Positions 9,629 through 58,291 of a DNA stretch of 64,000 nt are shown here, in pieces (the stretch's first letter is position 1; every line of letters starts with the position of its first letter). Below the pieces are notes generated by a model, which was given only the letters and a program-made list of their open reading frames with translations, did not search any database and had not been told where the DNA came from. The translations under genes were made by a program, and so were the position numbers. Where the stretch lies: assembly GCA_038065255.1 (NCBI GenBank), contig JBBTRI010000010.1, positions 59,762-123,761 on the forward strand. The letters are read 5' to 3'. The DNA is from Patescibacteria group bacterium (GTDB lineage Bacteria > Patescibacteriota > Patescibacteriia > JACQRZ01).

Positions 9629-11689
9629 ATGAAGCATTTTCTTTCACCAATTACGCTTATATTTATCGGCTTTTTTGGATTATACCTGCCTCATGCGTCG
9701 GCGCTTGCACCCGATACTCATTATGTACGCACAGCCAACTATTTTCTCAAAGCTGGCAGAGATATTTATCCTGAAATATACAATGCACTTAGCTCCTATG
9801 ACGTTCTCATTTTGCCCATGGAAGCAGCAGTATATAATAAGGACTTTTTTAACTACGCCCGCTCAAAAAATCCAACCATCACAATCCTTGCTTACGTCCC
9901 TTCTCGCAGTATCAATATCAAAGATATTGACGATGGAGCAGGTATACGAAAAAAGCTCAAGAGTGGCATTCAGAATGAATGGTATCTCAAAGACTCAGCG
10001 GGCTCAATTGTTCGCGCATGGGAATCAACACTGCCGTTAAATGTTACGACGGAATGGAATGTGTATTTGCCGCGATTCGTACATGATACTGTCATGAGCA
10101 CAGGCATGTGGGATGGAATATTGTATGATGAAGTTGATGTAAGTATTTCTTTTTTAAATAATGGCCAGATCGATGCAGATAGCGATGGACATACCGACCA
10201 ATCCGTTTTATTGGATGCTTCTTGGAAGACTGGCATGTCCCAGCTCCTTGTAAATACGCGTGAGCTTTTGGGTAATAACGCACTTATTGTTATCAATGGC
10301 AGCTCGCATCCTGCCTATCAGCAGTATATCAACGGCAGAATGTTTGAAAGCTTCCCTACTCCATGGGAGGGCAACGGTGAATGGCAGGATAGCATGCGCA
10401 GTTATCTTGCACTTTCATCAGCTGCTTTAAGGCCCCCGCTTTTTATTATCAATAGTAATACCGGAAATTCCGGGGAACATACAATATATCAAAAAATCCG
10501 CTTTGGTCTCACCTCGGCACTTATGGGCAATGCATATTTTGGATTTGATTATGGCACGCAAAACCACGGACAGCTCTGGCGATATGATGAATATGACGTC
10601 AACCTCGGAAAACCGTCTACGACTCCCTATGCCATCACTCATTCGATGTCCTCTGAAATGAAGCCTGGGGTATGGCGGAGGGATTTTCAGCAAGGGACAG
10701 TACTTACAAATTCATCATCTCAGCTTGCAAACGTAGATCTTGATGGAGATTTCGAAAAAATTCGTGGACCTCAGGACCCCGAAGTAAATAACGGATCAAT
10801 TGTTTCCAGTATTTCTCTCAGTCCTTCTGACGGTGTTATTCTCTTGCGTCCTCTATCAACAATCAACAATGCACCTTATTACAATGGCTCATTTGCGCGT
10901 GTATTTGATCAGCGCGGAAACGTACGCCGTAATGGTTTTTTTGCGTATGACTCATCCATCCGCGGATCTGTTGTTGTTTACCAGTCTACACTTCAGACGA
11001 GTATTGCGAGTATTCATGCCGAGAAAGGAACATTGCGAATAACTAAATCAGATGGAACAAGTAGTCAGTTCAAACCATTCGGACAAAATTGGAATGGTGA
11101 TCTAAATATTGCTATTGACTCAGCAAACCCCGAAAAACCAATAATCTATGCGAGTAGGGAATATCCGGAAAACGGCACTGTCAAGAAAAAAACAGTGAAA
11201 GGCGAGCCAAGCGGAATTGGAGTATTTGAAACCGACGGTACGCGACGCGCCGTATTATACCCACTTGGTAAAAAGTTTTTTGGATCGTTACGACTAGCGA
11301 TTGGCGATTTGAATAATGACAGCTCAAAGGAATTGGTTGTTTCAACGGGTGCGGGAACAAGCCCCGTTGTGCGTATATTTGACGCTCATGGTAGACTACT
11401 AAGCGGAGGATTTTACGCGTATCAGCCTACCTTTACGGGTGGCGTTTCGGTGGCAGTGGCCCATTTCGACTCAAGTGGCTATGGCACAATAGTTACATCG
11501 CCCGGAAAGGGTGGATCTCCCTTGGTTCGCGTATTCGACGGTAAGGCCCATCCCCTAAATCCGGGGTTTATGGCGTTTTCACCCGCAAACAAAGGAGGTA
11601 TCAGAGTGCTTGCTACAGATGTTAACGGCGATAATAGGGATGAGATCATTGCTACAACAGCAAAGGTTTTTACCTATGCACTGAAATAA
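9629..11689 (+). CDS. Secreted protein: putative glycoside-hydrolase-like (GH114/GHL-type TIM-barrel) N-terminal domain with C-terminal FG-GAP-like repeats
   Basis: Signal peptide MKHFLSPITLIFIGFFGLYLPHASALA. DGILYDEVD resembles the GH114 DGvfLDnvD motif. C-terminal repeats VVSTGAGTSPVVRIFDAHG / IVTSPGKGGSPLVRVFDG are FG-GAP-like. Confidence 0.45.
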   Translation: MKHFLSPITLIFIGFFGLYLPHASALAPDTHYVRTANYFLKAGRDIYPEIYNALSSYDVLILPMEAAVYNKDFFNYARSKNPTITILAYVPSRSINIKDIDDGAGIRKKLKSGIQNEWYLKDSAGSIVRAWESTLPLNVTTEWNVYLPRFVHDTVMSTGMWDGILYDEVDVSISFLNNGQIDADSDGHTDQSVLLDASWKTGMSQLLVNTRELLGNNALIVINGSSHPAYQQYINGRMFESFPTPWEGNGEWQDSMRSYLALSSAALRPPLFIINSNTGNSGEHTIYQKIRFGLTSALMGNAYFGFDYGTQNHGQLWRYDEYDVNLGKPSTTPYAITHSMSSEMKPGVWRRDFQQGTVLTNSSSQLANVDLDGDFEKIRGPQDPEVNNGSIVSSISLSPSDGVILLRPLSTINNAPYYNGSFARVFDQRGNVRRNGFFAYDSSIRGSVVVYQSTLQTSIASIHAEKGTLRITKSDGTSSQFKPFGQNWNGDLNIAIDSANPEKPIIYASREYPENGTVKKKTVKGEPSGIGVFETDGTRRAVLYPLGKKFFGSLRLAIGDLNNDSSKELVVSTGAGTSPVVRIFDAHGRLLSGGFYAYQPTFTGGVSVAVAHFDSSGYGTIVTSPGKGGSPLVRVFDGKAHPLNPGFMAFSPANKGGIRVLATDVNGDNRDEIIATTAKVFTYALK

Positions 11690-30394: not shown

Positions 30395-31149
30395 CTACTT
30401 GTGAGTAGTACTAATAGTAGCATAGCGAGAGTAATTGCGACAGACGAAAGTACGGATCGAACTGTCTGCTCTCGTTTGAGGGTTGAATACCCTATTTGAT
30501 TAATCAGGAAAAAAGGAATTGTAAGAAAAAATGCTTTGGGAATAAAATGAGTTGGAAACCAATGGATTGCAAATGCGCTTTCAACGATAATAAGTGTTTG
30601 GACAGCAGTGAATCTCCAAAACTGCCGAATATCACACTCATGTATCACAAGCTGTTGAACGAAGAAGAGTGCAGTAACTATTGCAAATGGAATAATAAGA
30701 AAAGATAGTTTATACTCAACGTAATAAATGAGTCCAAAAAGCAGAATGGATAGATTAAGAAATGAAATCACATGGAGCACCATGGTAATGTGCCAATAGG
30801 ATCTCACTTGGTACTGCTCCTGCTTATAGAGCAGAAAATAGAGGTTTATCAGGTAGAGCCATTGGAATAGTGCATTACTCGCAATGATAGTATTACGAAG
30901 ATACGATTCTTCAACAATAAACAGTGACGAAGCTGCACTACAATATAACAAGAGTGCCGGAAGAGCATACCATACGATCTTCATCCGTTGAATGTTCTTT
31001 TTAAAAAAAAGTGTAAGTAACGCATCCAAAAGAATTACACCTCCAAAAGCAATCGCAAGATAATGAGATGGAAATGCGAGTCCTATTTTTAATACAAGGG
31101 TTTGGAGGACTGGCAGAAACAAGAGAAGTAGAATTCGCACTGTTTTCAT
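30385..31149 (-). CDS. Hypothetical polytopic membrane protein (~7 TM)
   Basis: 254 aa and highly hydrophobic. Overlaps the neighbouring GT4 gene by 4 nt. Confidence 0.45.
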   Translation of the reverse strand: MKTVRILLLLFLPVLQTLVLKIGLAFPSHYLAIAFGGVILLDALLTLFFKKNIQRMKIVWYALPALLLYCSAASSLFIVEESYLRNTIIASNALFQWLYLINLYFLLYKQEQYQVRSYWHITMVLHVISFLNLSILLFGLIYYVEYKLSFLIIPFAIVTALFFVQQLVIHECDIRQFWRFTAVQTLIIVESAFAIHWFPTHFIPKAFFLTIPFFLINQIGYSTLKREQTVRSVLSSVAITLAMLLLVLLTSRWR

Positions 31150-32261
31150 AGTGAGGTATGGTAGATTTGAGAAGTCTTAAAAGCATTGGTCTTCCACGAA
31201 TACCGACCCAACAATCCCTGTCCACGTGTGATAAGATTATTTCTCAAATGTACGTCAGTATCAAGTTTTTTTAACGCGTCAATCATATCACATGGATTAA
31301 GCGGGTCAATATACAGACAGGCTGTTCCAAGAATTTCTTGAAACACCGGTATGTGGGATACAATAACAGGCGTTCCCAATAGGGCTGCTTCCAGAGGTCC
31401 GAATCCAAATCCCTCTTCGAGAGATGGAAAAAGTGCCGCATGTGCATTGCGGTACAGTATTGCAAGCTGATCATCAGATACATACCCCAAATGCACTATA
31501 CTATCCTCAAGTCCCCTTTTTTTAATTTCTTCAACGACTCGATTTTTAAAATAATCCTCTTGCCCGCATAAGACTAGCTGCATGGGGCTTCCTTCTATTT
31601 TTAGCTTCTCAAAAACCGTAAGAAGATATCCTATATTTTTGTGTGGATAGGCATTCCCCACATTAATACAGTATGGTTTTCGGACACAAGGTGGCAGTGG
31701 TAGCTCCCTACCGCGCTCATTAAGTTGTACGCCTTCGTGAACAACATACAGTCGCTCTTGAGGAATGGTAAGATAGCGCATAATGTCATTTTTTACCGAA
31801 TCTGAAACTGCAATGATGGCTCGCGCACGCCTACAAGCACTACGGAGAACAAAGAGATATGCTGCGTACTTTAATGCATGAATGGATGGATGTCTTGTTG
31901 AAGCAGCACTTTTTGATGATTCAGCGTGTTTTATCATAATCAGATCATGCAGCGTAAGAACGAATTTTTTTGGATAGAATATGGGTACATTAAAATGCGG
32001 AAAATGCATAATATCAACGTTATGCGTCAGAAACACAATAGGTGCAATACATTGTTCCGCAAGAGAATACCACGGGATATCGATGCAAACTTTTTTGAAA
32101 TGCGTATTGGTTGGCATGTATACATTCATCATTTCCTTCCGCAAAAAAATTACATACTCATCATCGGTCTGTAGCTGCTCAAGATGAAGCAAAAGCTGCT
32201 CAATATACCGCCCTATTCCGAGTCCCGCCTTATACAATCGTGCGTCAATTCCTATGCGCAT
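31146..32261 (-). CDS. Glycosyltransferase family 4 (GT-B)
   Basis: C-terminal EGFGFGPLEAALLGTPVIVS matches the GT4/GT1 E-x7-E region. Confidence 0.8.
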   Translation of the reverse strand: MRIGIDARLYKAGLGIGRYIEQLLLHLEQLQTDDEYVIFLRKEMMNVYMPTNTHFKKVCIDIPWYSLAEQCIAPIVFLTHNVDIMHFPHFNVPIFYPKKFVLTLHDLIMIKHAESSKSAASTRHPSIHALKYAAYLFVLRSACRRARAIIAVSDSVKNDIMRYLTIPQERLYVVHEGVQLNERGRELPLPPCVRKPYCINVGNAYPHKNIGYLLTVFEKLKIEGSPMQLVLCGQEDYFKNRVVEEIKKRGLEDSIVHLGYVSDDQLAILYRNAHAALFPSLEEGFGFGPLEAALLGTPVIVSHIPVFQEILGTACLYIDPLNPCDMIDALKKLDTDVHLRNNLITRGQGLLGRYSWKTNAFKTSQIYHTSL

Positions 32262-33373
32262 ATATTTTCAAATACGCGTACTGTTTGCCGTGCCGTCTCA
32301 TCCCATCGATACCGCGCCGCACGATCCTTCCCCTGCTGCATAAGATGCTTCCTTACAGCCTCATTAGTGTAAAGCGTACAGAGTCCTTCCGAAAGATCTG
32401 CAATATTACAGGGATCACACAACCACGCTCCTGAACCGCTGATTTCCGGTATACTCGAATGCGCACCCGCTATAACAGGTACTCCTGCAAGAAAGGCTTC
32501 AAGCGGAGGCAGACCGAAACCTTCGTAGATGCTTGGATATGCGCATACGCGAGCTGAGCAGAGCAAAGCAAATCGACGTTCGCGAGGCATATAGGGGACA
32601 CAGCGAACCCACTGGCTTATCCGGAGCTTCTGTATAGCTACTTGTATCCGTTTCGGTAGAGTGGACACACCCGCAAGTACAAGATAGGCGCTTTGTAGTT
32701 CTTCATTGAGAGTGCGTGCACGGGCAAATGCTTCGATCAATGATTCGATATTTTTTCTGCCTTCTTGCGGACAAAAAGCAAGAATAATCGGAAGTGCTTC
32801 ACAATAACTAGTATGGGATTGAAATTGATCTTCAACGCCAAGATGAACAACGCTCACGTTCTTCGGTGAAATGCGATAAGTCGAGACAATATCTTGTTTG
32901 GTGTGTTCAGAAACAGTAATAATTCCCTTACAGAGCTTTATGAGCCTCTCAGGGTCGAGAGCGCTGTGCCACCACCTACCTTTCAATGACTGTCTGTCCC
33001 GATAATGGATGTAGTTCAAATCATGGATTGTCACAATAACACGTGCGCGTGAAGAAAATGCTGCAAAGTTCATGTTTGGCATAAAAAAAAGGTCTATGCG
33101 TCTGCCGGTATTTTTTTCAAGATACTCATCAAGTTTAGGATAATGTGCAACCATAAGGGAAGTATTAAATAGTTTTGAAGGTATATGCGTATGAACAATC
33201 TGAAGATTCGCGCTCTCACTGAACGGGTGTGCAAACGAAGTACTGGCATTAAAAAATAAAATATAGGAATGCTGTGTGTACTGAGTAAACAACCGGCTCA
33301 AAAGCTGGTAGGTATAGACATCGATACCTCCCCTTGCTCCCTGCAACGATCTGCCGTCAATAGCGATTGTCAT
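32252..33373 (-). CDS. Glycosyltransferase family 4 (GT-B)
   Basis: C-terminal EGFGLPPLEAFLAGVPVIAGAHSSIPE. Confidence 0.8.
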   Translation of the reverse strand: MTIAIDGRSLQGARGGIDVYTYQLLSRLFTQYTQHSYILFFNASTSFAHPFSESANLQIVHTHIPSKLFNTSLMVAHYPKLDEYLEKNTGRRIDLFFMPNMNFAAFSSRARVIVTIHDLNYIHYRDRQSLKGRWWHSALDPERLIKLCKGIITVSEHTKQDIVSTYRISPKNVSVVHLGVEDQFQSHTSYCEALPIILAFCPQEGRKNIESLIEAFARARTLNEELQSAYLVLAGVSTLPKRIQVAIQKLRISQWVRCVPYMPRERRFALLCSARVCAYPSIYEGFGLPPLEAFLAGVPVIAGAHSSIPEISGSGAWLCDPCNIADLSEGLCTLYTNEAVRKHLMQQGKDRAARYRWDETARQTVRVFENICA

Positions 33374-44558: not shown

Positions 44559-44966
44559 CTAGATCCCAAATACGTTCCAATCAATTGAATAGATTCCTGC
44601 GCCCATAATAAAGATAAGGAATGCGGATGTAAACAGGACCAAATCAAATTCCCATCCATTGTCGCCACTGAATCCCTTTTTCCAAACTTTGATTTTAAAA
44701 TATAATGCACCAAGCATTACAGCCATAATACATAGCGCTGCGATTTTGGTGAACGCGCCAATAAGCATGCCAATGCCGCTGAGAATCTCCACAACCGCAA
44801 GCGTTCTCCAAAGTGCAAGCCATGCAATGCTAAGTTTTGCATTGTGGTGCATTTTCCAGTAATGCAATTTTTGATCGCCATGAAACAAAAATACAGCAGC
44901 CAATGCAATGCGAGCTACGAACAATGCAGTATCTTGTAAATCTGCTAATTGGAAAAGTTCAAACAT
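44559..44966 (-). CDS. DoxX-family membrane protein
   Basis: 135 aa with ~4 TM. ALFVARIALAAVFLFHG is a DoxX-like N-terminus. Confidence 0.6.
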   Translation of the reverse strand: MFELFQLADLQDTALFVARIALAAVFLFHGDQKLHYWKMHHNAKLSIAWLALWRTLAVVEILSGIGMLIGAFTKIAALCIMAVMLGALYFKIKVWKKGFSGDNGWEFDLVLFTSAFLIFIMGAGIYSIDWNVFGI

Positions 44967-44984: not shown

Positions 44985-45479
44985 TTATCGTTTCTGATTT
45001 TTACGTCCATACAATTCATAGCCGCCAACAACCAGACTTGCGGCAATGAGTACAATGTTTTTGATAACAAACTCCCCTTCAAATGTAAGAAGGAATGGAT
45101 TGCTGCCAAAAAACATCGGAGGATACAACAAAAGAGCAATAAAAATGCCAAGCATTTGAAGCCAAAGCAACAACAATGCAACGCGTAAACCCCGATGAGC
45201 CATTAGTAAAATACCGATAAGACACTCCCATATGCCAAGAACCGCCATAAAAGCGCTCTGAGGCAGAAACCAATACGTTGCTGCAATGATTGGCGCCGCA
45301 GGACTTGCATTCATTACTTTAAGAAGGCCAAACCAGATGAAGACGATTGCAAGCGCATAGCGTAAAAGAGGAATGCCCCACTGATGCATTTCCGTAATAA
45401 ACAGAGAATCAATTTTTTGGAATGTCGGTTTCATTATGGTTAGTATAGCATACTTGACTTTTTCTACTAAACCTGTCAT
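44985..45479 (-). CDS. DoxX-like/DUF417-like membrane protein
   Basis: 164 aa with 4 TM (LLRYALAIVFIWFGLLK). Adjacent to the DoxX gene. Confidence 0.45.
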   Translation of the reverse strand: MTGLVEKVKYAILTIMKPTFQKIDSLFITEMHQWGIPLLRYALAIVFIWFGLLKVMNASPAAPIIAATYWFLPQSAFMAVLGIWECLIGILLMAHRGLRVALLLLWLQMLGIFIALLLYPPMFFGSNPFLLTFEGEFVIKNIVLIAASLVVGGYELYGRKNQKR

Positions 45480-48239: not shown

Positions 48240-48590
48240 TTATACAGCTTGCGGAAACGGCTCAAGCTTTGTTATGCGGTTTGCGTCTGCCTTTGTTAAG
48301 AGATTTCTCTCTACCATAATCTCGACAAGCGTAAATAATTTGCGGTCTTCGCCTCGCAGAAGCACAACAAGATCCCCTTTAAGTTCCATATTTTGCTTAG
48401 CGATATAATCAATAAGGTCCGAACGAAGCCTTCCAAGATCTTCCTTGGTGGCAAAGGCCTTAAGATCTTCCTTGGTTGCCATGTCCTTAATATCCTCTTT
48501 GGTTGCCATTCTCTGTGAGATATCATCAAAGCATGCCTTCACTATAAGAGCGAGTTCATCAATAGTCATTTGTTGTGGTTGTTGATTCAT
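48240..48590 (-). CDS. Small protein with three tandem 9-aa repeats (ATKED[IL]K..)
   Basis: MATKEDIKD / MATKEDLKA / FATKEDLGR, encoded by three 27-nt tandem DNA units at 48433-48513. Confidence 0.45.
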   Translation of the reverse strand: MNQQPQQMTIDELALIVKACFDDISQRMATKEDIKDMATKEDLKAFATKEDLGRLRSDLIDYIAKQNMELKGDLVVLLRGEDRKLFTLVEIMVERNLLTKADANRITKLEPFPQAV

Positions 48591-48754: not shown

Positions 48755-49207
48755 ATGCCATTGAAAGCATCACCCTACAGAGCATTTGTGTGGTTTTTTA
48801 CACGGCCCAAACTTCAAGGTACGTCTTGTATTTTGCGATGTGGCAATGAAGTATTGCTTGTTGACTACAAATATGGCAGTGGATGGAATTTTCCAACAGG
48901 GCTCATTCAAATAGAAAACGAAAGTCCACAAGACGCTGCTCACCGTGAGCTCAGAACTGAATTTTCCATTCGGACAAAGATGCTACAATACATCGGATAC
49001 GTCTTTTGTAGATTCCAATGCCGCAGGGATCGTATTTTTTGTTTCGTTGTTGAGTTGAATAGTAAAGACGTGGATATCAACAATAAAGATATTCGAGGAA
49101 TACAATGGGTTTCTATTCCAGAACTCGAGAACATCACAATATCCCCTTTTTCAAAGGAAATTATTGCTCGCTGGTTCAAAAAGCAACGCCAAACTATTAC
49201 CACCTAG
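48755..49207 (+). CDS. NUDIX hydrolase
   Basis: GWNFPTGLIQIENESPQDAAHRELRTEFSI approximates the Nudix box (G..E x7 REx2xE). 150 aa. Confidence 0.55.
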   Translation: MPLKASPYRAFVWFFTRPKLQGTSCILRCGNEVLLVDYKYGSGWNFPTGLIQIENESPQDAAHRELRTEFSIRTKMLQYIGYVFCRFQCRRDRIFCFVVELNSKDVDINNKDIRGIQWVSIPELENITISPFSKEIIARWFKKQRQTITT

Positions 49208-51678
49208 TTCAGTGGAGTTGTTGTTGCACTACTTGAACCTGTTGACGTGGTTGTATTCTGCTGTGCTGGCTGGGTAGTCGAAGTTGAGCTTCCGGTGCCC
49301 GTACTTGTACTTTGCTGCGCAGGTTGAGTAGCTGATGTACTCGTTGTTGTTGCCGGTTTAAGCGTAAAGCGTTGCAAATAAATCGGAAGGCTCGTTACTT
49401 TTCTGGATACACCATATTTAGTTGAGTACTCAAGCGCCCAAACCAATCGCAATTGGTCATCTTCACCGGTAAGCTTTGCTTCCAATAAAACATCTGCATA
49501 AATATTAGCAACAACACTCGCGCCTGGCGCAATAGTATACGAGTTTACTCCAAAACCTATCTGACTGCCTGGAGCAGTAAATGGTGTAACATGGGTGATT
49601 CCAACATGCTTTCCATCAATAAAGTACTTGATATTATTAAATGCCTTACCAAGTCCTTCAGTTCCGTCACTGTCACTTATGGTCGGCTCTTCGATACTGA
49701 CACTTTCACTAAATCCATTTACGATGACGAATGAACCAATGAGCTGCTGTATTTCACCGCGGACAAGTGTAGGGGATCCAACAGCAGCATTCGTCTTTAC
49801 ACTCAAAAAGGCTGCGGGCAATTGGACAGGTGGTTGTGCGTATCCTGCTTTTTGCTCATACCCTGCTTTTTGTTCTGCCTGAGTAATCACCGGCAACTGA
49901 GGTGGTTGAACAACTTCAACGACGACTGATTTGCGCATTGATCGTTCATCATTTTTGCAATCAAAATAATAGGTTGTTGTTTTATCCGGAGCAAAAACAT
50001 CTGAACCGCTCAACTCCTTTGTGCCAGTCCAGCCGCCGGATGCCGTACACATGTTAGCATTCCGTACATCCCAAAATGCCGTTACTGTTTTGCCTAATGC
50101 AATCACTGATTTCTGAGGATAGAAATCGAGCCAAATACTCCCTGTTTTCTTTGCCTTAGCAATGGCAACAGAGACAGATGCCTCTTTGCCGCTTTCATTA
50201 TTTTTGCAGGTAAGCTTATAATCCGTTTCTTCTTGCGGACGTACATACTCAGAACCATCGACGGAACGGTCGCCGCTCCATCCGCCGGACGCACTACACT
50301 GTGTTGCGTTCTTAGTCTTCCATGTCAGGAGAATTGATTCACCCGGTGATTTAAAAGAATAGCGTGAAGGATAGAGCGTCAAACTTACCGGAGCATTATC
50401 TGGTTCAAGTACTTCAACAACAAAGGACTTACGCTTTGAAGTCTCATCATTCTTGCAGTCAAGGTAGTAGGTTGTCGTTTTGTCAGGTGAAAATGTTTCC
50501 GAGCCTTCTAAATCACGAGTTCCCGTCCAACCACCGGATGCCGTGCAGCTTCTTGCATTATGCACATTCCACGTTACGGTTGTCGATTTGCCAGCTTTGA
50601 TATTTGCCCGTGCCGGTTGCATGCTCATGGAAATATCTCCCTTCATTTTCTTTTTTGACAGATTTACCGATACCGAATTTTCAACTCCTGTTTCTGACGT
50701 GCATGTCAGTTTATAACTTGTATCCTCTGTTGGGCGCACATGTTCCGTGCCTTCAACGGGTCTATCTCCACTCCAGCCACCGGATGCAACACAGCTCTTG
50801 GCGCTCTTTGCTTTCCATGTCAGAACAATTGGATCGCCAGGTTTTGCAAAATAGTAGGTGGAGGGATACAGTGAAATACTCAACGGTAATGGTGGTGCTT
50901 CATACTGTTGATAATACGGTGCTTGCATGGTGCCATAGCCAGATTTCATTTCCGGAGGAGGCATATATGGCTGATATGGCACGGGATATGCTTGAATTGG
51001 AATAGGTAAGGGTTGCGATAAATCATACGGAAATGAATAACTGTACCCCGGTTTCATTTCGGTACTAGCTTGATCAACTATAACATTTGCGGAGAGATCT
51101 GCTGTAAATGTACGCTGATCATTCCAGCATCGAAGGAAATACGTGGTCGTAGTATCAGGCGCGATAACTTCACTACCGCTATTTCGCTTCATACCTTCCC
51201 ATGCATCTGGACCATACCCGCGGCACGCTACTGCATCTTTTGCGCGCCATTGTAGCGTAACAGTAGCACCATCAGTAATTTTTGCCTTGTTTGTTTTGAA
51301 TGTAACGCCGGGAACTTTCTTTTTCCCAGGTTTCTTTTTTATCACTTGGACTTTCTGGGTTTGTTCATCGGTACTGAAGCCCTCATCATCAAAGCATTCG
51401 AGGGAATATTCTGTTTTTTTCTTTTTTGGATATACCACCACTGACCCTGATGTCTTTTGCCTACCCGACCATGCACCCGATGCTACACAATAGGTGGCAT
51501 CAGATGCCTCCCATTCCAGTACAACACGCTCGCCTTTTACAATCGTCCGGGGAGTTGCGACAAATACCAAATCCAAATCTTCGTCTTCTTCCGCAAATGA
51601 TGGCGCAGGTGTGCCACTCAAAACTAAGGCAGTAATTGTTAAAAATATAACATGAAAACGCATTAAACGCCTATCCAT
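49204..51678 (-). CDS. Large secreted/cell-surface repeat protein: six tandem ~95-aa two-cysteine domains plus a C-terminal Ser/Thr-rich low-complexity tail
   Basis: Signal peptide MDRRLMRFHVIFLTITALVLSGTPAPSFA. Repeats share W(K/R)AK.A..C.ASGGW(S/T)G....GSE...P...T.Y.L.C. C-terminus TTTSTSATQPAQQSTSTGTGSSTSTTQPAQQNTTTSTGSSSATTTP. The underlying DNA repeats are diverged. Confidence 0.7.
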   Translation of the reverse strand: MDRRLMRFHVIFLTITALVLSGTPAPSFAEEDEDLDLVFVATPRTIVKGERVVLEWEASDATYCVASGAWSGRQKTSGSVVVYPKKKKTEYSLECFDDEGFSTDEQTQKVQVIKKKPGKKKVPGVTFKTNKAKITDGATVTLQWRAKDAVACRGYGPDAWEGMKRNSGSEVIAPDTTTTYFLRCWNDQRTFTADLSANVIVDQASTEMKPGYSYSFPYDLSQPLPIPIQAYPVPYQPYMPPPEMKSGYGTMQAPYYQQYEAPPLPLSISLYPSTYYFAKPGDPIVLTWKAKSAKSCVASGGWSGDRPVEGTEHVRPTEDTSYKLTCTSETGVENSVSVNLSKKKMKGDISMSMQPARANIKAGKSTTVTWNVHNARSCTASGGWTGTRDLEGSETFSPDKTTTYYLDCKNDETSKRKSFVVEVLEPDNAPVSLTLYPSRYSFKSPGESILLTWKTKNATQCSASGGWSGDRSVDGSEYVRPQEETDYKLTCKNNESGKEASVSVAIAKAKKTGSIWLDFYPQKSVIALGKTVTAFWDVRNANMCTASGGWTGTKELSGSDVFAPDKTTTYYFDCKNDERSMRKSVVVEVVQPPQLPVITQAEQKAGYEQKAGYAQPPVQLPAAFLSVKTNAAVGSPTLVRGEIQQLIGSFVIVNGFSESVSIEEPTISDSDGTEGLGKAFNNIKYFIDGKHVGITHVTPFTAPGSQIGFGVNSYTIAPGASVVANIYADVLLEAKLTGEDDQLRLVWALEYSTKYGVSRKVTSLPIYLQRFTLKPATTTSTSATQPAQQSTSTGTGSSTSTTQPAQQNTTTSTGSSSATTTPLN

Positions 51679-51736
51679 AGGATTAATGGATATGAATAAA
51701 TTATTGTCTATAGTATAGGTGTTAAAAAGAGCTCTG

Positions 51737-53665
51737 TCAAAGCCTATAAACAGTTATCGACGGACTTATCAATATTTTTGATCCTCCAAGTCCTTCTACT
51801 TCCCTTTCAATTCCCCTCTGTCGATACCAATATGAATGCACTACCAAATAGAGTGGGCGATCTTGAATGACCTTTTTAAGATTGTGAATGATTTCTTCGT
51901 TTACCTCGCCATACAGAAAATAGTTGCTATAGGGATACAGAGACTCAATGGGTGAAATTGCATAGGTATGCATTTTATCACTCAAAGCATTCTTAAATGT
52001 TTTCTCAAATCCCAGTACTCTCAATCCAACTGCTGCAAAGAGTTGATCGCTTGCCACTACATATTCTCCTCCTTTTTCGATATCCTCTATAAATCGAACT
52101 GCTTCAAAATCATCAGCAGATGCATTCCATCCAGCCCTTGGTTTAAATTCATTGACTTGGGGATACATAAGGTAGAGCGAGAGTGCCGCAGAGATTGATA
52201 GAATACTAATACTTAATACACGAACAATGCCATTATTCAAAATCTGCTTCAAAATCATCGGCAGGGGAAACGAAATAAGCAGTGGGAAAAAGATAGCGGG
52301 GATAATGCGATAGAGGCGCGCTGCAAACTCTCCCTGCTCATTTACTACAATTCCTGGCAGGGTAATATACATCGAGAGGCCAAATGCAGCTATCGCTAGT
52401 CCAATGGCAAGAGAACTGCTCGGAATGTGAAGGTGTGTTTTTTTTGAATATACAATACTGCATACTATACCGATTACGAAGAAAGTGGCTTTTATGAAAT
52501 ATTCATAGTAATTAATAATACTGCTACCAAGTGAGGCCATACCTACTGAGCGCGGAAATGCTAAGATCGATTTTATTTTTTCAAATGCCGAAGAAAGAGT
52601 TCTGGATTCAAAGAGAGTCATGCCATGCATGAAACGATAGATAGCAAATAGAGTTACAAGCGCAACTCCAATACATGCACCGACGCCAAAAAGTAATGCA
52701 ATTCTGTGCCTTTGGACGACTTTCCACGTATGGAGCGAGAGTGCGAGAGTAGAGATCACAAGCGGAACGCCAATAAGGGGGTGAATTGCCATCGCCGCCA
52801 ATGAAATGCACCAAAGAATAATTTTGCTAAACACATGCTGCTGCCAGATCGGGGCAAGAAATATCCACCAAAGCAATAAAATCACTGTGAGATTATGAGG
52901 AACGGTAAATGTAAGCTCTGTAAGTGGATAGAGTGTAAATAAAACTATTGCAATGTGTGCGCGCCGAACAGAACAACCATACCCGCGTACAAGACCAAAA
53001 AAAATAATAAACGGCAAGGTAGCTACTACAAGAATTGGTACAAGAAAACGGTCTATGATATCTATAGGAATTGCTGTAAGAAAACTCAATGCACTGACAA
53101 TGCCATATTGTCCGATATACAGGGGTTGTAGTGGAGTAATTACCCCATGAAGCTTAATATACTCTTCTGCAGTTTGATGAATGAGCGGATCATATCCAAA
53201 ACCATAGGGAAAGGCGATTAACGCAATGCCGTAGATGGTAAAAAAATGCACACTCATTGCTACCCACTGGATCCTGCTTACCACAGATGCTCTTAGAGCA
53301 GTTTGTACTAGACAAAAAAATGAAATAGCAACGCATACAAACATCCACCAGGGTACAAGCGACCATGGTGTTTGGAGTGGCGCATTGGTACGTGCATTCC
53401 ACAGTGCAAACAAAAAAATGCAATCAAAAAGTATGGCACTAGAAGGAAGTAGGTATGCCAATACATGTATCTTCTTGTCAGTAAGGGGCTGTTTTTCTGA
53501 TACAGGAAATGACCGTTGTGCTGCAAAGGCAATCAATATACTGCCAAGGAGTACTACAAAGGAAGATAGTAGAGTTATACCCACGGTAAGATAGGCGATC
53601 GAAGAAAGTATAACAAATACGCTGAAAGCAAAAATACCTATGAGCATTCTGCTATGTATGCCCAT
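51737..53665 (-). CDS. Polytopic membrane protein (~12-13 TM plus a C-terminal soluble domain), GT-C-fold glycosyltransferase-like
   Basis: 642 aa. Many TM helices. Acidic residue in the first extracytoplasmic loop (FPYGFGYDPL). ~150-aa C-terminal non-membrane domain. The architecture resembles the ArnT/PMT class. By inference only. Confidence 0.45.
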   Translation of the reverse strand: MGIHSRMLIGIFAFSVFVILSSIAYLTVGITLLSSFVVLLGSILIAFAAQRSFPVSEKQPLTDKKIHVLAYLLPSSAILFDCIFLFALWNARTNAPLQTPWSLVPWWMFVCVAISFFCLVQTALRASVVSRIQWVAMSVHFFTIYGIALIAFPYGFGYDPLIHQTAEEYIKLHGVITPLQPLYIGQYGIVSALSFLTAIPIDIIDRFLVPILVVATLPFIIFFGLVRGYGCSVRRAHIAIVLFTLYPLTELTFTVPHNLTVILLLWWIFLAPIWQQHVFSKIILWCISLAAMAIHPLIGVPLVISTLALSLHTWKVVQRHRIALLFGVGACIGVALVTLFAIYRFMHGMTLFESRTLSSAFEKIKSILAFPRSVGMASLGSSIINYYEYFIKATFFVIGIVCSIVYSKKTHLHIPSSSLAIGLAIAAFGLSMYITLPGIVVNEQGEFAARLYRIIPAIFFPLLISFPLPMILKQILNNGIVRVLSISILSISAALSLYLMYPQVNEFKPRAGWNASADDFEAVRFIEDIEKGGEYVVASDQLFAAVGLRVLGFEKTFKNALSDKMHTYAISPIESLYPYSNYFLYGEVNEEIIHNLKKVIQDRPLYLVVHSYWYRQRGIEREVEGLGGSKILISPSITVYRL

Positions 53666-53668
53666 GCA

Positions 53669-54466
53669 TCAATTCCTTTCCCGCACACACCATGTACCGA
53701 CCTGACGTCCCTTCATGCCCTCACAATCCTTTCGAGTACGATCGGAATTATAAAGCGGCGTAGAGCATGCATGCGCAAATATACCCTCGACATTATGACA
53801 GGAAAAAGGTTCTTGGCATGGCGTTGTACATTGTACATACCATGGTTCTTCTGGCGTCGTTTGTGGTGCCTGTGGAGAAAGCGATTCTTGCTTTTGTGCA
53901 GCTGGCGCTTGAACAGGTTCTTTTGTGCTCGATTGATCCTCGCTAAGAAGTTCTTTTATGAGCGTAATATTTTCTTTTAACTCCTTTGGTGCCATTGATT
54001 CCTTCTTGCATTTTGTATGAGATTTGTCAACGGAGCTCCCAAGCGGACAGACGCATTTCTTTCCATTCACTTTTGCTCCAAGTGGACAACGGTCATCTGT
54101 TGTATTTCCTATGTTCAGCACAAGCTCCGTGATATCACGTTTTGTGGAAATTGCTTCGCATATATTTTTATCACGATTTGGAACCTCTTTTTTGCATACC
54201 TTCTGACCTATAGAAGCGGCTTCTCGTACAGATTGAGAGGGGTGAGCGGCGCATTTTTCGGCGCATTTTTTCAGTTTAGTGTAATCTTTAATAAAGGGTT
54301 TATTATAACGGCAATTCAATACGCACTGTAATCGAATATGCCCCATAAGCGTCCCTTTATACGTACTAGCCGATCCGGACTTTGCTGCAATTACCGGCAT
54401 ACTTGCAGCGCACAGCAAACCAATAAGTGAGCCCACTAAGACAAAGAAAAATAAAAACCTTTTCAT
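53669..54466 (-). CDS. Cys-rich secreted protein (~17 Cys)
   Basis: Signal peptide MKRFLFFFVLVGSLIGLLCAASMPVIAA (start taken at the internal Met). CxxxC and CxC spacing throughout. A proline/glutamine-rich linker. Confidence 0.45.
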   Translation of the reverse strand: MKRFLFFFVLVGSLIGLLCAASMPVIAAKSGSASTYKGTLMGHIRLQCVLNCRYNKPFIKDYTKLKKCAEKCAAHPSQSVREAASIGQKVCKKEVPNRDKNICEAISTKRDITELVLNIGNTTDDRCPLGAKVNGKKCVCPLGSSVDKSHTKCKKESMAPKELKENITLIKELLSEDQSSTKEPVQAPAAQKQESLSPQAPQTTPEEPWYVQCTTPCQEPFSCHNVEGIFAHACSTPLYNSDRTRKDCEGMKGRQVGTWCVRERN

Positions 54467-54482
54467 ATTTCTATGTACTATC

Positions 54483-55022
54483 TTATTCTTCTGGTTTCCC
54501 ATCCTTTCTTTCGCTTCGGCGTTTTTCAGAAAGTTTCAATCCTATATAACCACTTCGATAGTGTTCGCGCTGAGCTTCGATTCTTAGGGCGAGTACATGA
54601 TAAAACATCGGCTTTTTCGTAATATCTGCCTTTGTCGCATCGTTCATCATTACAGCGACCTGTTCAAATCCATAGGTATTGATAAGCGACCGGTATTCCT
54701 GTTCCTGTCTTTTCTTTCGTGCAGGAGGCACTTGGTCGACGAGTGAATGGAGAAGCTTCATGACTGTGGCGTAGTGATCAATGTCTAGCCCGGCTTTTTT
54801 CAACATCGCCATTTCATATCCTCGGATTTCTTCGGGAGGTGTTTGAGTAATCATTTCTTGCCGCTCTGCCTCAAGCTTGTCCATAATCGCACGCCCTTTG
54901 AGCGAAATCCCTTTTCTCTCGTCAGTTCTAAATAGAGATTCATTTAACGCCGGATCGTCTTGATTTTGATTTGACTGATCTGATTGCCCCTTTCTACCCG
55001 GAAACCCTATTATTTTACCCAT
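54483..55022 (-). CDS. Hypothetical protein
   Basis: 179 aa, charged, no motif. First gene of the 55.0-49.2 kb co-directional cluster. Confidence 0.35.
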   Translation of the reverse strand: MGKIIGFPGRKGQSDQSNQNQDDPALNESLFRTDERKGISLKGRAIMDKLEAERQEMITQTPPEEIRGYEMAMLKKAGLDIDHYATVMKLLHSLVDQVPPARKKRQEQEYRSLINTYGFEQVAVMMNDATKADITKKPMFYHVLALRIEAQREHYRSGYIGLKLSEKRRSERKDGKPEE

Positions 55023-55059: not shown

Positions 55060-56436
55060 TTACAAAAATAGTGATGCAATCGTCGCAACACCTGCAAGCG
55101 CCATAAGGATCGTAACAAACCATCCACAAAACTTTGTTATAGGGCCACTCACCCATTTACCCATGATTTTTCTGTTTGAGCTCATAGAAACAATGAGAAC
55201 AAGAACAAGAGGGGCAACCAGTCCATTGGCGACAGCAGAATAAATCAGAGCCTTCATTGGGTTGATGCCTATGAAATTCAAAAGGAAGCCGATTGCCATG
55301 GAGATGATCAGGATTCCATAAAAAGCATGAGCGTTATGAAGTTTATTGTAAAGCCCATTCTTCCATCGAAATGTCTCGGCGACTGCATAGGACGCAGACC
55401 CCGCCAATACCGGCACAGCCAAAAGACCGGTGCTCACGATACCAAGTGTGAAAAGAAGATATGATGCATCACCTGCAAATGGGCGCAGAGCTTCAGCAGC
55501 TTGCGCTGCAGTAGCAATATCATGTATGCCATTGGCATAGAGTGTTCCTGCAGACGCGACGATAATAAAGAACATGATGAGATTTGAAAGAAACATTCCA
55601 GACCACACATCAATACGCATCTTTTTGATATCTTCCACGCTCGCGCCCCGACGCTCCCTTATCGTTGTTTTTCCTTCCAACACTTGCTCCTCAACCTCTT
55701 GTGAAGTCTGCCAGAAAAAAAGATAGGGAGATATTGTTGTGCCTAGGATTGCACAAATGAGAATAATTTGATCTTGTGAAAAAGCAATCGATGGAGTCAG
55801 GGTATGAAACGTGATGGCTTGCCAATCGAGACCTTTAATCATGATTGTCGAAATGATATATGCAACAAGCGTCAGTGCGAGATACTTCAAATATTTGGCA
55901 TAACGCGCATAAGTAGAGAAGATTTGAAGAAAGAGACTCACCAACGCGAAAATAATAATGAGTGCTGCAAAATTCGCTCCGGGAAAAAGAAGCTTCATAG
56001 ATTCTGCCATAGCACCAAGGTCCGCCCCGAGATTAAATGTATTTGCAGCAAAAAGGAGGATAGTGCATATATAGAGTACGGTGCGCGGATAGTGTGTGCG
56101 GATATTTGCCGCAAGACCCTTGCCTGTTACAATCCCAATACGTGCGCACATTTCCTGAACTACTGCCATAAAAGGGAAGGTGAATCCTGCAAGCCAGAGC
56201 AGCTGTGGACCATACTGTGCTCCAGTCTGGGAATAGGTCGCAATACCCGCAGGATCATCGTCGGATGCGCCAGTCGTCAATCCTGGCCCAAGAGTGCGCC
56301 AAAAGCCCCGTGCTTCTTGCATAGGCTTTTTACTTGCAATATCATGAACTACCAACTCGGATAACTCAACAGTTTTTTCGAGTATAATTGCCGGCGCTTC
56401 AATAGTTTTTTTTAAAATCGATTTAGTTTTCGGCAT
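55060..56436 (-). CDS. mntH: NRAMP-family divalent metal (Mn2+/Fe2+) transporter
   Basis: GPGLTTGASDDDPAGIATYSQTGAQYG matches the Nramp DPGN-type first-TM motif. ~11 TM. 458 aa. Confidence 0.75.
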   Translation of the reverse strand: MPKTKSILKKTIEAPAIILEKTVELSELVVHDIASKKPMQEARGFWRTLGPGLTTGASDDDPAGIATYSQTGAQYGPQLLWLAGFTFPFMAVVQEMCARIGIVTGKGLAANIRTHYPRTVLYICTILLFAANTFNLGADLGAMAESMKLLFPGANFAALIIIFALVSLFLQIFSTYARYAKYLKYLALTLVAYIISTIMIKGLDWQAITFHTLTPSIAFSQDQIILICAILGTTISPYLFFWQTSQEVEEQVLEGKTTIRERRGASVEDIKKMRIDVWSGMFLSNLIMFFIIVASAGTLYANGIHDIATAAQAAEALRPFAGDASYLLFTLGIVSTGLLAVPVLAGSASYAVAETFRWKNGLYNKLHNAHAFYGILIISMAIGFLLNFIGINPMKALIYSAVANGLVAPLVLVLIVSMSSNRKIMGKWVSGPITKFCGWFVTILMALAGVATIASLFL

Positions 56437-56486: not shown

Positions 56487-58124
56487 TTACTGTTGCAACT
56501 CCTTTTTCTCATTCAGTGCTTCAAGCGCTACTGTATGAAGTTTGGCTGAAACTTTTTGTTCGCCAAACCGCAAAAGCTCACGAATCTCTGCTGTATTTTC
56601 ACTCTTTGTCTTATCTCCAAGCGCTACAGCAATAATTTGTCCTGATTTTCCTTGGATACTCGTCATCAAGCAATACCCTGCTTCGTGAAGGTATCCTGTT
56701 TTGGATCCTGTCACTGCAAGGTTTGAAGTCACAAGCTGATTGGAATTTTTTAGTACATGTTTTTGCTTGGTATTGATTGTTGAAAATGCATAGCGTTTCA
56801 TAGTGCTTGCTTTTTGAATAATCGGATCACGAAGCGCTACAAGCGCCAGCAATGCATAGTCGTGTGCAGAGCTTACATTATTTGGCGAAAGGCCGGTAGG
56901 TTCATTGAAATGCACAGAAAGAAAACCGCGATCATGAGCAAAGCTGTTCATTTTTTGTATAAACTCGTCGCGGGGCAAGCCACTTACCCGCACCAGAGAT
57001 TCAACAGCATTATTTGCAGATCCGACAAGTGCTGAATACAGGAGATCTTCAACGGTCAACGTATCCCCTTCTTTGAGTTTGAGTGTTGCTGCTTCGTAGG
57101 GGTAGTCAACGAGTTTGTAGGTTACTATTTCATCATCTACATGATATGGTACAACGTCATTGAGGTTTGGATTTGAATCAAGAAATACACGAATGGCAAT
57201 GATCTTTGAAAGACTTGCTATCGGAAGCGGAGTTTCTGCATTTTTTTCATATAATACATTTCCAGTTCCCTCATCCAACACTACGGCAGCTTTTGATGTG
57301 ATGTGCGGATAGGTGACTGCGTCTTCATGTGAAATGCCAAGCGCTTTCCCATCCTGTAGTGCAATGAAAAGCGGTTCAATTCTCACCGGTATAATCCCAG
57401 CTCCGAGAGGAGCGATTTTTTGAAACGCGCTTTTTTCCAAATCCACAACGCGTTCGGGATGGAGCAATCTGTCAGGGCCATAATCATTAATAGTCACATC
57501 AACACGCTTGTCATTTAGGGTATTGTATACGCGTATTTTTGATCCTTTGGGAAAATCGGGCGAAGCCGCAAAGAGTCCTTTTTTGTGAGCATACCAACTC
57601 GCCTTACCTTCAGCGAGCACATCAGGATAGGCAAAGAGAGCGATACGGGCATAGGGCAAATGAATCAGCGATCTTGCAAGTGCGGTATTTGTTAATACTG
57701 TTGTGGGTAAAGCGCGCCATGTTGATTTCGTCTTATCGTAAAAAAAGACTTGCTTAAGACGCGATGTTTCTTCTGTAGCTTTCAATTCAATGATAAATGG
57801 CTTAGTTGCGTCGTAAGCACTCTTATTCAGAAATTCAAAATCATAAATCGGACTGATCCGCTGAAGACCCAGGGGCATTTCCATCTCCGGAATAACAGTA
57901 GCTCGAATAGTTGTTTCACTGGAAAGGATTCCAGGAATAAGAGAAAGTTTCAATCCTTCTTCAAAGGCAGTTACTGTATACCCTTTTGCAATCGTAGCCG
58001 CATCAAGACGGATAGAAAATTCTGCATAATCAGAGGATACTTCGGCATAGCCCAGAGAAACTCCAAAGAAAAGGAAAGCGCAAATACTCAAACTGGCAGA
58101 TAAATACTTCATAATGTAAATCAT
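56487..58124 (-). CDS. Fusion protein: RlpA-like double-psi beta-barrel domain plus D-alanyl-D-alanine carboxypeptidase (S11, PBP5-type)
   Basis: Signal peptide. GKASWYAHKKGLFAASPDFPKGSKIRVYNTLNDKRVDVTINDYGP is an RlpA/DPBB signature. C-terminal AAVVLDEGTGNVLYEKNAETPLPIASLSKI (SxxK), SGN and KTG motifs. Confidence 0.7.
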   Translation of the reverse strand: MIYIMKYLSASLSICAFLFFGVSLGYAEVSSDYAEFSIRLDAATIAKGYTVTAFEEGLKLSLIPGILSSETTIRATVIPEMEMPLGLQRISPIYDFEFLNKSAYDATKPFIIELKATEETSRLKQVFFYDKTKSTWRALPTTVLTNTALARSLIHLPYARIALFAYPDVLAEGKASWYAHKKGLFAASPDFPKGSKIRVYNTLNDKRVDVTINDYGPDRLLHPERVVDLEKSAFQKIAPLGAGIIPVRIEPLFIALQDGKALGISHEDAVTYPHITSKAAVVLDEGTGNVLYEKNAETPLPIASLSKIIAIRVFLDSNPNLNDVVPYHVDDEIVTYKLVDYPYEAATLKLKEGDTLTVEDLLYSALVGSANNAVESLVRVSGLPRDEFIQKMNSFAHDRGFLSVHFNEPTGLSPNNVSSAHDYALLALVALRDPIIQKASTMKRYAFSTINTKQKHVLKNSNQLVTSNLAVTGSKTGYLHEAGYCLMTSIQGKSGQIIAVALGDKTKSENTAEIRELLRFGEQKVSAKLHTVALEALNEKKELQQ

Positions 58125-58291
58125 TGCACTATGATATCATACGACGATCTTTGCGCAAAATAAAAAGTCACCAGACATATCTAGTGACGCGAGATTCTCT
58201 CTATTAGAGTAAGTCCCGCGGACGTTTAGCTTTTACAAACACTTCTTTTGTTTTTCCTGTTTCGAATTTTGGTATGTCTTCCATAATTGTG

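Follow-up and report, generated by a model that had tools for sequence, protein, structure and literature searches.

A family of membrane proteins from Patescibacteria with a predicted GT-C fold and oligosaccharyltransferase-like architecture, and its association with neighbouring proteins carrying x-G-Y motifs

Glycosyltransferases of the GT-C fold are known with several kinds of acceptor. The oligosaccharyltransferases (OSTs) STT3, AglB and PglB (GT66) recognize the sequon N-x-S/T and have a peptide-binding C-terminal domain, while the enzymes of the PMT type (GT39) O-mannosylate disordered Ser/Thr regions. The mycobacterial arabinofuranosyltransferase AftA (GT85) acts on lipid-linked galactan and is found in Actinobacteria; like Emb and ArnT (GT83), it uses an acceptor that is not a protein. 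ALG9/ALG12, AftB and AftD are further GT-C enzymes directed at glycans. In the first external loop (EL1) of GT-C enzymes, a long outer loop, an Asp stands where a juxtamembrane helix begins. Tyrosine-linked glycans are known on the surface-layer (S-layer) proteins of Paenibacillus and Thermoanaerobacter, where they are made by transferases of the Wzy_C type (PMC2943079). We analysed a stretch of 64,000 nucleotides (nt) from an uncultured groundwater bacterium of the Patescibacteria group (contig JBBTRI010000010.1 of GenBank assembly GCA_038065255.1), here called the window, in which a run of minus-strand genes encodes a polytopic membrane protein of 642 amino acids (aa) and, directly downstream, a secreted protein of 824 aa. 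The 642-aa protein, a putative glycosyltransferase referred to below as the enzyme, represents a sequence family that is new among proteins of the GT-C fold, with an architecture closest to that of the OSTs. To our knowledge, the cell envelopes of Patescibacteria, also called the candidate phyla radiation (CPR), are almost uncharacterised; their surface proteins mediate an episymbiotic lifestyle.

Residues 7-642 of the enzyme are identical to a 636-aa hypothetical protein of a Patescibacteria metagenome-assembled genome, for which NCBI sets the start six codons downstream. A word-indexed search returned 14 relatives only, while a search of 1.84 billion cluster representatives (clustered at the 50% identity level) with a profile found 1,149 clusters at E <= 1e-3, 958 of them at E <= 1e-30. 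The family is large and unannotated, and most of its members come from Patescibacteria. Pfam holds no model for it: a scan of 70 members gave one weak, stray match to DUF6541 and none to PMT or PMT_2, and ten distant members had no match at E <= 1. A literature search for CPR GT-C enzymes, OSTs or PGY glycosylation returned nothing relevant, and nothing on this family.

The enzyme was modelled with AlphaFold2 from a 14-sequence alignment, with a mean local confidence (predicted local distance difference test, pLDDT) of 84 and a predicted template modelling score (pTM) of 0.88. The model has about 15 transmembrane (TM) helices and, at the C-terminus, a soluble domain of about 140 aa; an earlier note on this DNA had anticipated the polytopic protein and its soluble domain, with a count of about 13 helices. 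When the model was searched with Foldseek, the top matches were PglB, STT3A, AftA, AglB and ArnT at a probability of 1.0 (0.97 for the apo-form ArnT, 5ezm) with TM-scores of 0.35-0.44; no other match exceeded a probability of 0.25 and no transporter fold scored. In these alignments the predicted polytopic fold matches those of solved GT-C enzymes, and the model shows a GT-C fold. The C-terminal domain has the AglB/STT3 core fold and resembles that of archaeal AglB, its best match being the AglB/STT3 peptide-binding domain, so that at the level of domains the modelled architecture is OST-like. The same note had proposed a GT-C enzyme of the PMT/ArnT type; the fold stands, whereas the type does not hold by sequence, the closest architecture being that of STT3/AglB/PglB.

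In an alignment of 70 sequences sharing 20-40% identity, nine columns were found to be invariant (W101, D159, H163, Y183, G185, Y187, P256, R450 and P502) and H295-P296, Y501, D519 and F553 were conserved in at least 90%. D205 and E443 are kept in at least 96% of the clade to which the window belongs and in 81-83% of the other clade (see below). From the helices of the model and the positive-inside rule, all conserved positions are placed in predicted outer loops or at the outer ends of helices, with Y498, Y501, P502 and D519 lying past the last helix. D159 stands at the N-terminus of a short helix (158-173) that is followed by a second one (184-197), inside a predicted outer loop of 49 residues between TM helices. 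By analogy, this loop would be equivalent to the EL1 of GT-C enzymes.

In its long outer loop, where a conserved Asp begins a juxtamembrane helix, the enzyme appears to resemble STT3, AglB and PglB, and it shares with them a Glu and an Arg that are conserved ahead of the last helices; its distant relatives lie in pgl-like clusters rich in GT4 genes. It differs from them in lacking sequence similarity, an STT3 Pfam match and the WWDYG, DK or MI motifs, and in the candidate acceptor motif of its neighbours, which is x-G-Y and not N-x-S/T; the neighbours share no sequon. AftA has 7% identity to the enzyme, and genes for arabinan or galactan are missing here. Unlike PMT and ArnT, none of the 70 members has a PMT/PMT_2 match, a MIR domain is missing and the loop motif, GFGYDPxxH, is different. 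The Wzy_C-type enzymes PglL, PilO and WsaB/WsfB, which produce Ser/Thr- and Tyr-linked S-layer glycans, may offer a functional analogy, namely en bloc O-glycosylation of surface proteins, including tyrosine linkage (PMC2943079), but they belong to another fold and family (WaaL, 7tpg_B, scored a Foldseek E of 1.1 at a probability of 0.06, and there is no Wzy_C match).

The 824-aa protein is probably an acceptor substrate or a surface protein. It was described in the earlier note as six two-Cys units ending in a Ser/Thr/Gln-rich tail of about 50 aa, and this is what is found: 12 Cys form six pairs with a spacing of 30-32 residues, every pair belonging to a W-x7-C-x-ASGGW-x-G...C unit, and the last 49 residues hold 30 Ser/Thr and 7 Gln. 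AlphaFold2 gives six all-beta domains with a pLDDT of about 90, and a beta-sandwich domain of lower confidence at residues 624-775; in this model the two linkers are disordered over residues 207-261 and 595-623. Foldseek related the model to generic multi-domain proteins of the immunoglobulin (Ig) type (GhpA, the MG domains of complement and CD109, DSCAM, SbsB), and the repeats are Ig-like, one of the folds that the earlier note had considered for the 95-aa repeat. The two-Cys repeat is widespread, with 233 matches, some of them in proteins labelled Proteobacteria by their sources; the NAT triplet within the Ig repeats belongs to the domain consensus, which is built from homologs including these Proteobacteria-labelled proteins. 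The five 824-like orthologs all keep K-[SP]-G-Y directly after the second Ig domain, and ahead of the C-terminal domain, at the position of linker 2, they all have K-x-[GE]-Y; the surrounding disordered linker sequence cannot be aligned. The Ser/Thr-rich tail is likewise present in five of five.

Related loci were gathered by exact look-up (9), from species-representative genomes (28) and from metagenomes (80). Repeats of P-G-Y were noticed in genes beside the enzyme, and a motif carrier was then defined as an open reading frame (ORF) with at least three [PSAT]GY; this criterion was fixed on a first set of loci before the hold-out metagenome loci were fetched. With near-duplicates kept, all 11 motif ORFs in the first set (of 464 ORFs) were no more than two genes away from the enzyme gene. 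This held for 12/13 in the hold-out set against a background of 247/601, and 9/13 were adjacent to the enzyme against 133/601. Loci whose enzymes were at least 80% identical were then collapsed to give 72 non-redundant loci (29 discovery and 43 hold-out), among which 12 of 16 motif ORFs were adjacent to the enzyme as compared with 127 of 729 other ORFs (odds ratio 14, Fisher p = 1e-6). The association was found in the discovery loci (7/9 adjacent, p = 4e-5) and was replicated in the hold-out loci (5/7, p = 0.007).

The motif carriers belong to several families (Table 1), with no detectable mutual similarity outside the motif region besides a shared N-terminal anchor. The simplest are mini-proteins, and some of their genes overlap the enzyme gene or run co-directional with it and have no other recognisable function. 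If L056:2051-2605 is counted as well, the mini-proteins span 75-184 aa with 3-13 PGY repeats and are encoded next to the enzyme gene or no more than two genes away; an example of their Thr/Lys-rich N-terminus is METQTKTSTKTRT. The same type of anchor is found in larger PGY partners (L008, L014, L082, L004, L034). Ser/Thr-rich segments were considered as the feature shared by the neighbours and were rejected, since beyond the 824-like family and one giant protein no adjacent gene encodes them; what accompanies the enzyme across distant relatives is not a Ser/Thr tail but the x-G-Y motif, found in disordered parts of neighbour proteins.

Some further observations concern these neighbours. A domain of about 150 aa without annotation (…YWY..DGKRYVFPNE..Y.SW…GGNVTYRPGS.LIKI.TDP.VY.V..GGVLR…) recurs beside enzyme genes of clade A (defined below), often fused to PGY repeats; its members are L004:6350-6868, L008:9992-10840, L014:5258-6514, L016:8823-9548 and L082:5094-5903, and those of L004 and L082 were scanned and had no Pfam match. 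L044 encodes two Cys-rich secreted paralogues that carry blocks of PGY (L044:2665-3684 and L044:4998-5780), one adjacent to the enzyme gene and the other four genes away, and the family occurs also in L042, L043, L046, L050 and L054. The contigs of L118 and L119 are too short to tell much, but L119 ends in a Tyr/Pro-rich C-terminus upstream of the enzyme gene.

UPGMA (unweighted pair group method with arithmetic mean) grouping of 101 enzyme sequences separated two clades. Clade A comprises the shorter enzymes of about 620-700 aa, including that of the window. Clade B, the deeper one (about 700-750 aa), lies within glycan clusters with GT4 (two to three copies), GT2 with DUF2304, PMT_2, WecG/TagA, DUF4012, radical SAM-SPASM and dTDP-rhamnose genes, and from this context it is argued that the enzyme family works with lipid-linked glycans. 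The flanks of clade B genes (L009, L015, L017, L019, L027, L032, L035, L037) resemble a CPR wall-polymer or glycoprotein locus. Among all 28 species-representative records with the family, the titles of 17 name Patescibacteria, Uhrbacteria, Falkowbacteria, Kuenenbacteria or Parcubacteria, and one reads 'bacterium'. The remaining ten (L015, L017, L021, L024, L026, L027, L032-L035) are third-party annotation (TPA) assemblies titled 'uncultured Gammaproteobacteria', which may be a labelling issue.

An 824-like protein directly downstream of the enzyme gene is confined to the closest relatives (L001/L010, L007, L012 and L038), which makes five loci with the window; enzyme identity is 35-41% in L001/L010, L007 and L038, where the gene is full-length on the contig, and L012 has a partial copy only. 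A protein sharing just the first two Ig domains is encoded five genes upstream of the enzyme in L002/L003 and L047-L049. In several close relatives, a block of DsbA, a DoxX-like 8-TM protein, VKOR and a flavin mononucleotide (FMN) reductase flanks the enzyme gene, directly upstream of it (L001:1856-2625, L002:5335-7989, L006:2732-5527, L045, L048). The arrangement points to a joint organisation of disulfide formation and the GT-C enzyme in those relatives, and the block fits a neighbourhood that matures secreted, disulfide-bonded proteins. Seeds of VKOR, DsbA, DoxX-328 and FMN_red gave zero matches across the 64 kb, so the block is absent there. The window does contain a DoxX and a DUF417 gene, some 4-5 kb from the 824-aa gene.

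Taken together, our preferred reading, which is tentative and for which we would claim somewhat less than an even chance, is that the enzyme is an OST-like GT-C glycosyltransferase that moves a polyprenyl-phosphate-linked sugar onto disordered segments of proteins encoded next to it, here the 824-aa protein, with x-G-Y as the recognition element. The sugar or glycan would come from a lipid-linked donor made elsewhere in the genome; the invariant outer-face R450 and the clade B neighbours GT2+DUF2304, WecG/TagA and GT4 hint at such a donor. Transfer would take place outside the cytoplasmic membrane, onto secreted or membrane-anchored proteins, and the acceptor in the window would be the six-Ig-domain surface protein, perhaps transcribed from a strong promoter of its own. 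The likeliest recognition element would be x-G-Y (K-[PSA]-G-Y in the window, P-G-Y repeats in relatives), which makes Tyr the leading candidate for the modified residue, and the Ser/Thr tail would be a second candidate acceptor. A GT-C enzyme that makes tyrosine-linked glycans would be new.

Several observations weigh against this reading. Any glycan on these proteins is itself a prediction. Comparison with PDB sequences, whether by the single protein, a 14-sequence profile or a 70-sequence profile, yielded no significant match, ArnT coming closest at E 3.3, and hhalign of the family against genuine PMT_2 proteins of the related loci reached a probability of 39% in the C-terminal region only, which is not usable; at the sequence level, no link to any GT-C family is apparent. 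The only WW pairs of the enzyme sit inside TM helices. Because the OST motif WWDYG is absent, no hidden Markov model matches and hhalign gives no more than the above, membership in STT3, PMT or ArnT is not established by sequence. The conserved acid, which had been placed in the first loop, is D159, and its long loop follows the fifth helix, so that the N-terminal four helices, extra in comparison with STT3/AglB/PglB, are apparently an addition. Clade A has no glycosyltransferase neighbours, and the unit in the window holds no donor-synthesis or flippase gene and cannot be called the self-contained glycosylation system that had been suggested. About one-third of the loci in the clade of the window have no x-G-Y neighbour (e.g. 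L002, L006, L011, L041). Many PGY partners share the Thr/Lys-rich N-terminal anchor, and hence the associations that are independent are fewer than the loci. Finally, the Tyr/Pro-rich linkers could be merely structural.

Three other explanations were considered. The surface-protein genes could reflect a general envelope neighbourhood and the acceptor could be a secondary cell-wall polymer, a lipoglycan or a lipid, as for AftA, Emb and ArnT. We regard this as unlikely, though it deserves serious attention; the match of the C-terminal domain to a peptide-binding domain argues against it, as does the specificity of the x-G-Y adjacency, which extends to mini-genes overlapping or co-directional with the enzyme gene. 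The model of the earlier note, in which the enzyme O-glycosylates the Ser/Thr-rich tail in the manner of PMT-type O-mannosylation, appears improbable, since such segments are not general among the neighbours of the enzyme, whereas x-G-Y recurs across families, and neither a PMT/PMT_2 match nor a MIR domain was found. It may also be asked if a GT-C-like fold could serve without any glycosyltransferase role, as a membrane scaffold, a transporter, or a modifier or cross-linker of Tyr-rich peptides by some other chemistry. The absence of any motif of a characterised GT-C family and of adjacent donor genes in the clade of the window would agree with this, but every strong fold match is a glycosyltransferase, the invariant outer-face Asp, His and Arg fit a site for a lipid-phosphate-sugar, and clade B sits in glycan clusters; this explanation is considered very improbable.

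The preferred reading, transfer of a lipid-linked sugar to x-G-Y-bearing segments, can be extended into a broader and rather unlikely proposal. The family would be a phylum-wide, undescribed group of OST-like GT-C enzymes in Patescibacteria, one clade of which is a protein tyrosine O-glycosyltransferase with the sequon (P/S/A)-G-Y. This clade would decorate Ig-repeat surface proteins and the anchor-plus-PGY mini-proteins, and the latter would be protein-primed glycan carriers, a proteoglycan-like or teichoic-acid-like component of the envelope of ultra-small bacteria. For the study of the CPR envelope, the family offers a handle in three respects: it is large and unannotated with a confidently predicted GT-C/OST-like fold, it has a candidate acceptor motif that was replicated bioinformatically, and it comes with natural minimal candidate substrates, the anchor-plus-PGY proteins of 75-130 aa. 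Should x-G-Y prove to be a tyrosine sequon, the enzyme would be the first glycosyltransferase with a GT-C fold to act on tyrosine and would give glycoengineering a new tool; otherwise, the family would still extend the GT-C superfamily by a new branch and provide a marker of surface glycoproteins in the CPR.

Table 1 Features of the window (positions counted from its first letter) and x-G-Y motif carriers in the window and related loci (L numbers)
Feature	Position or locus	Strand	Remarks
642-aa polytopic membrane protein, putative OST-like glycosyltransferase of predicted GT-C fold	51737..53665	minus	Founding example here of the unannotated family
Long outer loop, residues 152-200, FPYGFGYD159PLIH163...Y183xG185xY187	53066..53212	minus	Two short helices; candidate catalytic loop
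C-terminal soluble alpha/beta domain, residues 503-642	51740..52159	minus	Predicted extracytoplasmic
824-aa secreted protein	49204..51678	minus	Signal peptide, Ig1-2, linker, Ig3-6, linker, beta-sandwich domain, Ser/Thr/Gln tail
Disordered Tyr/Pro-rich linker 1, residues 204-262	50893..51069	minus	pLDDT < 50; KPGY 51043-51054, KSGY 50935-50946
Disordered linker 2, residues 593-624	49807..49902	minus	pLDDT < 50; KAGYEQKAGY 49840-49869
Disordered Ser/Thr/Gln-rich C-terminal tail, residues 776-824	49207..49353	minus	pLDDT < 50; alternative acceptor region
Promoter-like site TTGACA-17-TATACT	51712-51740	minus	11/12 consensus matches; in the 58-nt gap before the 824-aa gene
265-aa secreted 17-Cys protein	53669..54466	minus	3 nt upstream of the enzyme gene; orphan
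179-aa protein, no signal peptide or TM segment	54483..55022	minus	No family match; weakly linked to the unit
Nramp	55060-56436	minus	
S11 DD-carboxypeptidase	56487-58124	minus	
Terminator-like hairpin	58167-58188		
NUDIX hydrolase	48755-49207	plus	
116-aa protein	48240-48590	minus	
DoxX	44559-44966		
DUF417	44985-45479		
GT4 gene pair	31146-33373	minus	
GHL15-family putative glycosyl hydrolase	9629-11689	plus	
Motif carriers: 824-like Ig proteins			
Motif carriers: 'YWY…RYVFPNE' domain proteins	L008, L014, L082		
Motif carriers: two different Cys-rich secreted families	L004/L034; L042-44/L050/L054		
Motif carrier: small-domain protein	L056		
Motif carriers: mini-proteins, 75-130 aa	L013:8947-9174, L068:3304-3696, L111:4718-4975		Thr/Lys-rich N-terminus, Ala/Gly-rich TM helix, 5-13 PGY repeats only

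The four packed minus-strand ORFs on which the earlier note had based its operon are present as it gave them (Table 1), with gaps of 16, 3 and 58 nt in the order 179-aa, 17-Cys, 642-aa and 824-aa, and none of the four proteins has a match in Pfam or NCBIfam, in agreement with its remark that no family could be assigned. The two upstream genes are not conserved partners of the enzyme. The Cys-rich secreted protein has the 17 Cys reported for it, one of them inside the signal peptide; NCBI annotates the same start (AAB400_03205), and a longer ORF starting at 54502 is possible. Besides itself, no homolog was found among 5.8 billion clusters and no match in more than 110 related loci. At its position, unrelated Cys-rich secreted proteins are found in L004, L034, L042-44, L050 and L054; kinship with the Cys-rich PGY proteins at the same position elsewhere was considered and rejected, as similarity was not detectable. 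The 179-aa protein has a single homolog in the related loci, with 31% identity (L007:5645-6127); its gene and that of the enzyme homolog are two genes apart, the former being upstream. As the 17-Cys protein has no homologs and the 179-aa protein recurs only in L007, the unit consists of two genes, not four; of the synteny proposed for related genomes, the pairing of the enzyme with the 824-like protein survives, in the five loci described above.

The tight run on the same strand extends upstream through the Nramp gene and then the S11 DD-carboxypeptidase gene, and the only terminator-like hairpin in a 9.8-kb scan lies beyond them. Hence, the limits of the operon are not set by spacing alone and the boundary drawn around four genes is arbitrary. 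The promoter-like site before the 824-aa gene was the top-scoring one in the same scan and, by its consensus match, is near-consensus and sigma-70-like; taken as a class, promoter-like sites showed no enrichment against shuffles. From its sequence, this site suggests separate and strong expression of the 824-aa surface protein.

Among the other genes of the window, the S11 D-Ala-D-Ala carboxypeptidase is fused to a DPBB (lytic-transglycosylase-like) domain, and such a gene also lies near the enzyme gene in two close relatives (L001:11924-12972 and L007:1-792). The overlapping GT4 pair stands beside a DUF5656 membrane protein, 18 kb off, and cannot be linked to the unit. The NUDIX hydrolase gene is convergent with the 824-aa gene, their 3' ends overlapping by 4 nt (49204-49207), and the 116-aa protein encoded just beyond it carries three tandem (M/F)ATKED(I/L)K repeats and has no family match. 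The putative glycosyl hydrolase of the GHL15 family is secreted and carries an FG-GAP repeat.

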